IMG/VR virus record: IMGVR_UViG_3300029577_000220
Span: 1-11,007 of that record
Length of the DNA stretch: 11,007 bases
Reading direction: 5' to 3' (one strand)
Source of the DNA: a virus
Lineage: Duplodnaviria > Heunggongvirae > Uroviricota > Caudoviricetes
The position numbers and the translations under genes were made by a program. Numbering within the stretch: position 1 is the first letter of the stretch; the number at the start of each line of letters is the position of its first letter. Positions 5,085 to 11,007 of this stretch are shown one piece after another. The notes below the pieces were generated by a model. The model had not been told where the DNA came from, did no database searches, and saw nothing but the letters and a program-made list of their open reading frames with translations.

Positions 5085-5159
5085 TGGCGATGGTGGGTGG
5101 ACTCGAACCACCGACCAGTTGATTAACAGTCAACCGCTCTACCACTGAGCTACACCATC
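5085..5159 (-). tRNA. tRNA-Asn (anticodon GUU), 75 nt with encoded CCA.
   Basis: Minus-strand sequence GATGGTGTAGCTCAGTGGTAGAGCGGTTGACTGTTAATCAACTGGTCGGTGGTTCGAGTCCACCCACCATCGCCA folds by hand: acceptor GATGGTG/CACCATC, D-stem GCTC/GAGC, anticodon stem GTTGA/TCAAC with loop CTGTTAA, T-stem GGTGG/CCACC with loop TTCGAGT, discriminator G, CCA. Confidence 0.85.
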
Positions 5160-9099: not shown

Positions 9100-9153
9100 T
9101 GAACCGCCCCGGAAATCCTGGAGACTAAACTCCCTGAGAAAGAGGTAAACAGG

Positions 9154-9480
9154 ATGACTAAAAATACTCGTTTTTCCCCCGAAGTCCGTCAGCGGGCGAT
9201 TCGTATGGTTCTGGAAAGTCAGGATGAATATGACTCACAGTGGGCGGCAATTTGTTCCATTGCCCCAAAGATTGGCTGTACGCCGGAGACTCTGCGTGTC
9301 TGGGTTCGCCAGCATGAGCGGGATACCGGGGGCGGTGATGGTGGGCTCACCAGCGCTGAACGTCAGCGTCTGAAAGAGCTGGAACGTGAAAATCGTGAAC
9401 TGCGCCGCAGTAACGATATCCTTCGCCAGGCTTCCGCTTATTTTGCGAAGGCGGAGTTCGACCGCCTCTGGAAAAAATGA
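9154..9480 (+). CDS. IS629 transposase OrfA (HTH and leucine-zipper part), 108 aa.
   Basis: [23 protein letters not shown]... is typical of IS629/IS1203-group OrfA; ends ...LWKK* at the A6 run 9472-9477, the expected -1 frameshift window. Confidence 0.9.
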
Positions 9481-10367
9481 TGCCACTGCTGGATAAGCTG
9501 CGTGAGCAGTACGGGGTCGGACCGGTATGCAGCGAACTGCATATTGCCCCGTCAACGTATTACCATTGTCAGCAACAGCGACATCATCCGGATAAACGCA
9601 GTGCCCGTGCGCAGCACGACGACTGGCTGAAGAGAGAGATACAGCGCGTATACGATGAAAATCATCAGGTGTACGGTGTGCGTAAAGTCTGGCGTCAGTT
9701 GTTACGGGAAGGAATCAGGGTGGCCAGATGTACAGTGGCACGTCTCATGGCGGTTATGGGACTTGCCGGTGTTCTCCGGGGTAAAAAGGTCCGTACGACC
9801 ATCAGCCGGAAAGCCGTTGCCGCAGGCGACCGCGTAAACCGTCAGTTCGTGGCAGAACGACCTGACCAGCTGTGGGTGGCTGATTTTACTTACGTCAGCA
9901 CATGGCAGGGCTTCGTCTATGTGGCGTTTATCATTGATGTGTTTGCCGGATACATCGTGGGGTGGCGGGTCTCATCGTCTATGGAAACGACATTCGTGCT
10001 GGATGCGCTGGAGCAGGCGTTGTGGGCCCGTCGTCCGTCTGGCACCATCCATCACAGCGATAAAGGCTCTCAGTATGTGTCACTGGCCTATACGGAGCGA
10101 CTAAAAGAAGCCGGATTACTGGCATCAACAGGGAGTACAGGCGACTCGTATGACAACGCGATGGCTGAGAGCATCAATGGTCTTTACAAAGCGGAGGTAA
10201 TACACCGTAAGAGCTGGAAAAACCGTGCAGAAGTGGAACTGGCCACACTAACGTGGGTGGACTGGTATAACAATCGACGATTGCTGGGAAGGCTGGGCCA
10301 TACTCCTCCGGCAGAAGCAGAAAAAGCTTATTATGCTTCCATCGGAAACGATGATCTGGCAGCCTGA
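9477..10367 (+). CDS. IS629 transposase OrfB (DDE/rve catalytic domain), 296 aa; expressed as an OrfAB fusion by -1 frameshifting.
   Basis: rve-type motifs [58 protein letters not shown]; overlaps orfA by 4 nt in the -1 frame. Confidence 0.9.
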
Positions 10368-10409
10368 GTTCACAGATAAAACACTCTCCAGGAAACCCGG
10401 GGCGGTTCA

Positions 10410-10769
10410 TTCACCTTCATCGCACACAGTCTGATTGGTGTAGACAGTCTGATTAGTGTAGACAATGCGACCGTCGTACCATGCACCGATACTCACTTCG
10501 ACCGTTGCGTCTTTCATCTCGCGAGAGAACGCCACAAGTGCCGCGCGTTTCTGCTTAACACCTGACAACTCCGGGGACTCTCCAAAACGAACCCAGACCT
10601 GCATGTATTTCGAGCCTTCCGAAAGAGGTACGGTGCTCACGGACGTGGCGATATGCTCCAGTGCAGTTTGGATCGCCTCGTCGATAATCTTCTGGCGCTC
10701 TTCTGTATCAATTTCTACGCCGGATTTGTCGATGATGTCGCAGACTAACTTCTGAAATTCTTCTTTCAT
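10410..10769 (-). pseudogene. 5' portion (120 codons) of the IS629-interrupted gene; its promoter and RBS are intact.
   Basis: ATG at 10767-10769 with AGGAG 7 nt upstream; the ORF runs into the IS629 right end, where it meets a stop supplied by the IS terminal TGA (10407-10409). Confidence 0.7.
10428..10463. repeat. 18-bp tandem duplication (AGTCTGATTGGTGTAGAC / AGTCTGATTAGTGTAGAC) inside the interrupted gene, encoding VYTNQT twice.
   Basis: Units 10428-10445 and 10446-10463 differ at one position; in frame. Confidence 0.6.
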
Positions 10770-10809
10770 AGCAACTCCTGACTAACAGATGAAAATATTC
10801 TTTCAGAAA

Positions 10810-10831
10810 AATAAGTAAGTATCTACTTATT
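10810..10831. promoter_or_regulatory. Palindromic site AATAAGTA-AGTATC-TACTTATT in the promoter region of the interrupted gene; same motif family as 5884-5909.
   Basis: 8-bp arms are reverse complements; contains the 11-mer ATAAGTAAGTA; ~40 bp upstream of the start at 10769. Confidence 0.4.
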
Positions 10832-10861
10832 ATATCGGGCACAATAGTCTGCTATACGAAG

Positions 10862-11007
10862 AAGCCAGGCGTAAAAACTACTCGGATGCACATCCAGCAC
10901 CCGACAAAGCAGTCGGACAGGCCAGCAATAGGTGTTGCATTGACAGATTGAATCTACAACGGCTTTTTTTAATATGTCCCGTTCGTCGGTAACCCGCTTC
11001 AGCTCTT
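10862..11007 (-). mobile_element. Fragment of a second, different IS3-family element (OrfA C-terminus to OrfB N-terminus junction region); continues beyond the right window edge; inner boundary uncertain (between ~10833 and ~10865).
   Basis: Minus-strand translation ELKRVTDERDILKKAVVDSICQCNTYCWPVRLLCRVLDVHPSSFYAW shows the OrfA-type ...ILKKA and the OrfB-type LCRVL.V..S.(Y/F).W motif (compare IS3 MCRVLRVARSGWYTW from memory); A7 run at 10964-10970 lies at the expected frameshift window. Not IS629 (sequence differs from the in-window copy). Confidence 0.45.

Follow-up and report, generated by a model that had tools for sequence, protein, structure and literature searches.

The DNA analysed here, hereafter called the window, is a stretch of 11,007 nucleotides from an SSU5-like phage-plasmid. 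E. coli plasmids of ~100-160 kb match 86-87% of its length at 99.1-99.7% identity, and Salmonella phage SSU5 matches 54% of it at 90% identity, with the SSU5 homology ending at position 10833. The 12-13% of the window that is missing from the related plasmids corresponds to IS629 (9100-10409, plus strand, 1310 bp), which has inverted repeats of 25 nt, is flanked by a target duplication of 3 bp (TTC) and matches copies in O157 Stx phages at 100% identity. IS629 cuts an SSU5_042-like gene of 813 bp, the 5' 120 codons of which occupy positions 10410-10769 on the minus strand. The element was found at this site in no PLSDB plasmid and in no complete E. coli genome and, as it is missing here in related plasmids, we regard the insertion as private to the source. 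Inside the interrupted gene, an in-frame 18-nt tandem repeat (10426-10461; 6 aa, YTNQTV) is present in two copies in the window and in its relatives L001 and pEC21Z137-115K (L129), and in one copy in p1585m1_B (L006), pE16EC1016-4 (L007) and E. fergusonii pRHB41-C15_2 (L130). Elsewhere, the window contains a tRNA-Asn (GTT) gene (5085-5159, minus strand), which also occurs in SSU5 and related plasmids, as well as genes for a DNA ligase, an integrase and a YafO-type toxin according to the annotation of its relatives.

Upstream of the interrupted gene, the backbone between the gene start and a joint to insertion sequence DNA (10770-10860, minus strand) displays a TATAAT motif followed by a 22-bp perfect palindrome (10810-10831; 8+8, AATAAGTA-N6-TACTTATT), which is conserved in SSU5. 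Judged by sequence, this segment probably serves the downstream gene as promoter/operator, and the palindrome is a likely operator given its position behind TATAAT and its conservation in SSU5. A simple sigma-70 scan of 10770-10860 called no promoter; the TATAAT was read by eye.

Beyond this region, at the right edge of the window, a single minus-strand reading frame (10823-11007) extends around a run of seven A residues (T7 on the plus strand, 10964-10970) and reads ...ERDILKKAVVDSICQCNTYCWPVRLLCRVLDVHPSSFYAW..., or in full ELKRVTDERDILKKAVVDSICQCNTYCWPVRLLCRVLDVHPSSFYAWLLRIADYCARYNK. It is closed by a TAG stop codon at 10823-10825 and is still open at the window edge. The initial annotation had described an IS3-family fragment at 10833-11007, in which OrfA-type and OrfB-type motifs share one frame around A7, and had offered either a natively fused transposase or the insertion of one additional A at the frameshift site as explanation. 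Translation confirmed the shared frame. It is, however, a chimera made up of the end of orfA, an IS30 inverted repeat, the start of orfB and 14 codons of backbone. No Pfam match was obtained with the 60-aa window peptide, which we ascribe to the peptide being too short. At the same position in near-identical plasmids, PGAP annotates a pseudogene ('transposase, frameshifted; incomplete; missing C-terminus').

The parent element of the orfA and orfB segments is a 1229-bp member of the IS3 family, for which we use the working name ISX. E. coli E6474 and HS carry intact copies, which PGAP labels 'IS3 family transposase, programmed frameshift' and their proteins (WP_094283415.1 in E6474, WP_085949497.1 in HS) 'IS3 family transposase'; the orfB-side segment of the window matches genes with the former label in 789 E. 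coli records. ISX codes for an OrfA of 92 aa and an OrfAB of 382 aa. The OrfAB reconstructed from the intact copy at L004:1635-2863 scored 436.9 bits against the IS3-family profile NF033516 (cut-off 160), and Pfam places HTH_Tnp_1 and HTH_21 in the N-terminal part and the DDE domain (rve) in the C-terminal part. The inverted repeats are of the TG...CA type (L004 termini TGAATCGCCAC.../...GTGGCGATTCA), and the element is flanked by 3-bp target duplications (GGT/GGT in L004, GTT/GTT in L005). Native ISX reads ATATTAAAAAAAGCCGCGGCGTACTTCGCAAAGCTGTCCGACTGAGGTACGCC..., with A7 at nt 303-309 and an 11-bp stem-loop 5-6 nt downstream, and orfB (..CWPVRLLCRVLDVHPSGFYAW..) is encoded in the -1 frame with respect to orfA. 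The sequence of ISX thus predicts the overlapping orfA/orfB arrangement with -1 programmed frameshifting at an A-rich run by which IS3-family elements are recognized.

ISX OrfB is 37% identical to that of IS911 and 35% to that of IS629. PGAP, PLSDB product names and NCBIfam gave no name beyond 'IS3 family'; presumably, ISX resembles ISfinder entries such as ISEhe3. The left end of ISX is the element called IS911A or insN in prophage CP4-6 of E. coli K-12. At 37% OrfB identity, this left fragment (L002) is ISX and not IS911, and the K-12 label 'IS911A' covers an element other than IS911.

Two parts of ISX are preserved in the window, both on the minus strand. The left part (10960-11007; ISX nt 266-313) comprises the orfA 3' region (..ELKRVTDERDILKKA) together with the native A7, runs past the window edge and is identical at 48/48 positions to the intact copies represented by L004 and to L001. 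The second part (10861-10929; ISX nt 370-438) holds the first ~23 orfB codons (CWPVRLLCRVLDVHPSSFYAW), natively in the -1 frame with respect to orfA, and is identical at 68/69 positions (98.6%) to L004, L129 and L001. This segment includes a terminator-like structure at 10882-10904, a G+C-rich hairpin of 8 bp with a T run behind it, which is native to ISX at the start of orfB (TCGGGTGCTGGATGTGCATCCGA) and sits ~90 nt after the slippery site. To the right of the fragment, the relatives run on into the rest of orfA and the left inverted repeat. Judged from the relatives, through which this region outside the window is known, position 11007 would be followed by the remainder of orfA (start MSGKRYPEEFK) and, ~270-330 bp on, by the left repeat TGAATCGCCACAGG.

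The IS3-family likeness noted initially is therefore not coincidental, as the two segments match an intact 1229-bp element and the right side in the relatives consists of orfA and a terminal inverted repeat. The IS3-family nature of the fragment stands, but not its extent, since the IS-derived sequence stops at 10861 and not at 10833. It was also correctly distinguished from IS629, from which it is separated by a gap of 451 bp and by an OrfAB identity of 35%. As a mobile element, however, the window copy is incomplete. It shares the A7 run and the orfA and orfB motifs with intact ISX but holds ~117 nt of it, interrupted by the IS30 repeat, which has replaced the frameshift stem-loop. ISX ends at nt 438 of 1229, without rve and without the right inverted repeat. 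Lacking DDE domain, right repeat and frameshift stem-loop, this copy cannot transpose.

The two explanations offered initially for the shared frame make different predictions for related copies of the element. We scanned one genome per species and obtained 120 ISX copies from ~100 species, mostly Enterobacterales. An A7 run was present in 110 copies, 56 of which had a 303-codon ORF in the -1 frame; nine copies had A6 and were all degenerate, and a single copy had A6G with an intact 303-codon ORF, again in the -1 frame. A long orfB in frame 0 occurred in none of the 120 copies. The census shows that A7 is native and that there is no natively fused form of this element. Many IS3-family members use A6G, and the presence of A7 together with both motifs in one frame could be read as the result of a +1 A insertion (A6 to A7) that fused orfA to orfB. 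Yet A7 is the slippery run of the 56 copies with an intact -1 orfB, and A7 followed by the native downstream sequence leaves orfB out of frame, so that an additional A has next to no probability as the cause. A natively fused, single-ORF transposase, to which the single open frame covering both motifs had pointed, is refuted: beyond the missing frame-0 orfB in the related copies, the linker between the two motifs is the terminal repeat of IS30, and the frame stops 14 codons past the joint between ISX and the backbone and includes no DDE domain.

The IS30 sequence, a third insertion sequence that had been overlooked, is located at 10931-10958 (minus strand). It is a solo right-end inverted repeat (IRR) of 28 nt (TGTAGATTCAATCTGTCAATGCAACACC), the sole remnant of a 1221-bp IS30, and matches the IRR of the complete element extracted from L003 at 28/28 positions. 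A pattern search for the IS30 IRR returned this one match with 0 mismatches, where 0 were expected from 200 shuffles. In the chimeric frame, the repeat is translated as 'VVDSICQCNT'. Past AAAAAAAGCCG, the window reads T followed by TGTAGATTCAATCTGTCAATGCAACACC and then returns to ISX at ATTGCTGGCC. The junction base T (10959, minus strand) forms, together with the preceding G, the left copy of a GT dinucleotide flanking IS30: the junction reads GCCGT|TGTAGA in the window and L001 and TCTACA|GTGGCGTAC in the sister plasmid p1585m1_B (L006), while native ISX reads GCCGCGGCG at this point. The 56 nt of ISX right after A7, covering the stem-loop and the end of orfA, are swapped for 30 nt. The net change of -26 nt is equivalent to +1 modulo 3 and places orfB in the frame of orfA; in its effect on the frame, it would mimic the programmed -1 shift. 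A random indel has a chance of one in three to restore the orfB frame, and the shared orfA/orfB frame of the window is an accident of the IS30 scar.

At the inner end of the repeat, CAACACC(C) (10931-10937, minus strand) is common to the IS30 IRR and to ISX nt 362-369 and marks a deletion joint. Here, IS30 reads GCAACACCCCTTTC (GCAACACCCC in the inner repeat) and ISX reads GACAACACCCATTGC, and the window departs from IS30 after GCAACACC; the joint was aligned across the window, L001, L129, L006 and intact ISX. Compared to the complete 1221-bp IS30, the window retains the perfect 28-nt right repeat, which includes the 26-bp terminal inverted repeat of the element, and shows a 2-bp duplication at the centre of the near-palindrome GCCGCGGC, but it lacks the transposase gene and the left end. 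The left inverted repeat (IRL) lies outside the window, in L006. This sister plasmid carries the reciprocal half, consisting of the first ~97 nt of IS30 with the IRL, then GT, ISX nt 315-438 and the same backbone joint. With GT on the left in the window and L001 and GT on the right in L006, the two lineages share a GT/GT insertion of IS30, reversed with respect to ISX, and have lost different parts of it. In pEC21Z137-115K (L129), the plasmid most closely related to the window overall, the same truncated ISX is present without IS30.

On the other side, the ISX-derived sequence ends at 10861 within a 10-bp sequence, GCCTGGCTTC (10861-10870, minus strand), which occurs in ISX (nt 429-438) as well as natively in the backbone and thereby forms the joint of a 3' deletion. 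In E. fergusonii pRHB41-C15_2, which represents the empty site, the native GCCTGGCTTC is part of the terminator of an intact gene for a 137-aa lipoprotein. In pE16EC1016-4, a tip of the ISX right repeat (16/17) lies inside this lipoprotein gene, 103 bp upstream of GCCTGGCTTC. The lipoprotein gene (L130:1169-1582) occurs in E. fergusonii and in some of the SSU5-like plasmids of E. coli, not in the lineage of the window, where the insertion of ISX and deletions seem to have destroyed it. The putative promoter/operator region of the downstream gene is unchanged, because the 10-bp joint restores the native sequence.

Taken together, the locus is very probably a three-layer insertion sequence scar, dead as a transposase, in which an ISX copy was hit by IS30 and IS30 was then mostly deleted. 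We propose the following order of events. ISX would have inserted into the small lipoprotein gene of an SSU5-like phage-plasmid. A deletion between the 10-bp GCCTGGCTTC repeats, ISX nt 429-438 and the backbone terminator, would then have removed ~790 bp, namely the 3' two thirds of ISX, which hold its catalytic part, together with the right end. In the next step, IS30, reversed with respect to ISX, inserted at the centre of the GCCGCGGC palindrome just behind A7 and left the GT duplication. Finally, a deletion between the 8-bp CAACACCC microhomologies of the IS30 right repeat and ISX may have removed ~1.19 kb of IS30 and ~47 nt of ISX, from the insertion point after nt 314 to nt 362, leaving the 28-nt repeat. 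Both deletions may have occurred by slippage between the short repeats. The intermediates are reconstructed: our searches returned no phage-plasmid with at least 300 nt of IS30 next to the middle of ISX and this backbone, only IS30::ISX composites in other contexts, and no relative with full ISX next to the tail of the lipoprotein gene. Moreover, in L001 and L129 the sequence that precedes the IRL of ISX on the left differs from the lipoprotein gene flank expected there, which indicates further rearrangements beyond the detail of this model. As the native dinucleotide at the insertion point is GC and the census contains no native copy with T at this position, we assume that the GT arose as junction spacer or during repair.

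Alternatively, the IS30 end could have been imported by recombination or gene conversion from an ISX::IS30 copy of the host, followed by deletion. IS30 occupies the same position of ISX in 234 plasmid records and thousands of E. coli chromosomes, and composites with chimeric flanks show that such exchanges occur. Also, the backbone of the window is nearer to the type-A plasmid L129 (99.7%) than to L001 (98.8%), yet the scar is shared with L001. However, the widespread composites that we examined have GC at the junction, and K-12 has GCTGC, not GT, and the GT/GT pair is common to the window/L001 and L006 lineages in the same backbone, which makes import unlikely compared with an insertion into the phage-plasmid itself. 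Direct descent from the copy in CP4-6 of K-12 or from the composites that are widespread on plasmids was likewise rejected, their junctions reading GCTGC or GC instead of GT.

Apart from its origin, we considered whether the remnant is kept for a function, either as a truncated, OrfA-like helix-turn-helix protein that dampens ISX transposition or as a solo repeat that attracts IS30. In the IS3 family, transposition is regulated by the OrfA proteins. The scar is shared by ~30 E. coli phage-plasmids. IS30 has also been reported to insert beside its own inverted repeats (PMC9333248). Against such a role, orfA is broken in the relatives by additional frameshifts, a +1 A in L001 and a -1 C at GCC in L129, and PGAP calls both pseudogenes, which argues against selection on the chimeric ORF. 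In addition, the two window-specific changes within the chimeric frame are both non-synonymous, and a new IS30 copy at the scar was found in no relative. Retention for function is hence quite improbable, and the scar is best regarded as an ordinary composite of known elements that follows known biology.

The insertion behind the slippery run is not a singular event. IS30 or diverged IS30-like elements occur at the identical phosphodiester bond of ISX in both orientations, as in K-12 CP4-6, L003, L027, L045, L054, L067, L072, L131, L132 and the plasmid records mentioned above. IS30 is known to insert into near-palindromic hot spots with 2-bp duplications and to target its own repeats, and E. 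coli K-12 harbors an IS911 interrupted by IS30, IS911'::IS30A::IS911'' (PMC9333248). In that case as in the window, IS30 sits at the equivalent point behind the slippery run (ILKKA^) of an IS3-family element; the host element in the window is ISX and not IS911. The equivalent point of IS911 is also seen in L003 (300-2900), which has the structure ISX-left::IS30::IS911-right, and in L132, with IS911-left::IS30::ISX-right. These structures indicate that IS30 copies sitting at the equivalent hot spot recombine with each other and so produce chimeric IS3-family shells. In L131 (~550-700), a third sequence (..GGAGTTTCTCAGGAAAGCCGC|IS30 IRR) flanks IS30 opposite the right half of ISX, and this may be a further element of IS3 type into which IS30 inserted at a comparable GCCGC motif.

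Loss of IS30 from such sites also has precedents. Imprecise deletion between short repeats, with the IRR often left behind, is how elements of the IS30 family decay, as described for ISApl1 around mcr-1 (Snesrud et al. 2018, PMC5821093), and that study cites Szabo et al. (1999) for IS30-associated excision through illegitimate recombination. ISApl1 decay and the window have in common the imprecise loss between short repeats and a remaining IRR segment, but the microhomology in the window is 8 bp instead of 1-4 bp and both end points of its deletion lie away from the IS tips. Other traces are found at the IS30 site of ISX in Citrobacter sp. (L015), which reads GCCGTTGTACTTCG, and in Pantoea eucrina (L061), which reads GCCGCTGTATACTTCG; these look like 4-nt IS30 footprints (TGTA) from excision at GTA microhomology.

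That the stretch after the slippery run is a sequence-specific IS30 hot spot in several IS3-family elements, namely ISX, IS911 and at least one more, is well supported. It is conceivable, if somewhat short of probable, that IS30 repeatedly inactivates these elements as an 'IS-in-IS' insertion at the very place where the OrfA/OrfAB ratio is determined, that halves of unrelated IS3 elements are shuffled by recombination between such IS30 copies and that solo repeats stay preferred targets. For the SSU5-like phage-plasmids, the suspicion of a busy region is borne out, as the fragment lies upstream of where the gene split by IS629 starts, in a stretch that varies between related phage-plasmids. 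This intergenic zone gathers insertion sequence traffic, with ISX, IS30 and IS629 in the window and IS1 and other IS3-type elements in relatives. More generally, two transposase motifs that share a frame at an A-run need not mean a mutation of the frameshift site or a fused transposase. A nested insertion sequence scar can give the same picture, which bears mainly on the correct annotation of such loci.
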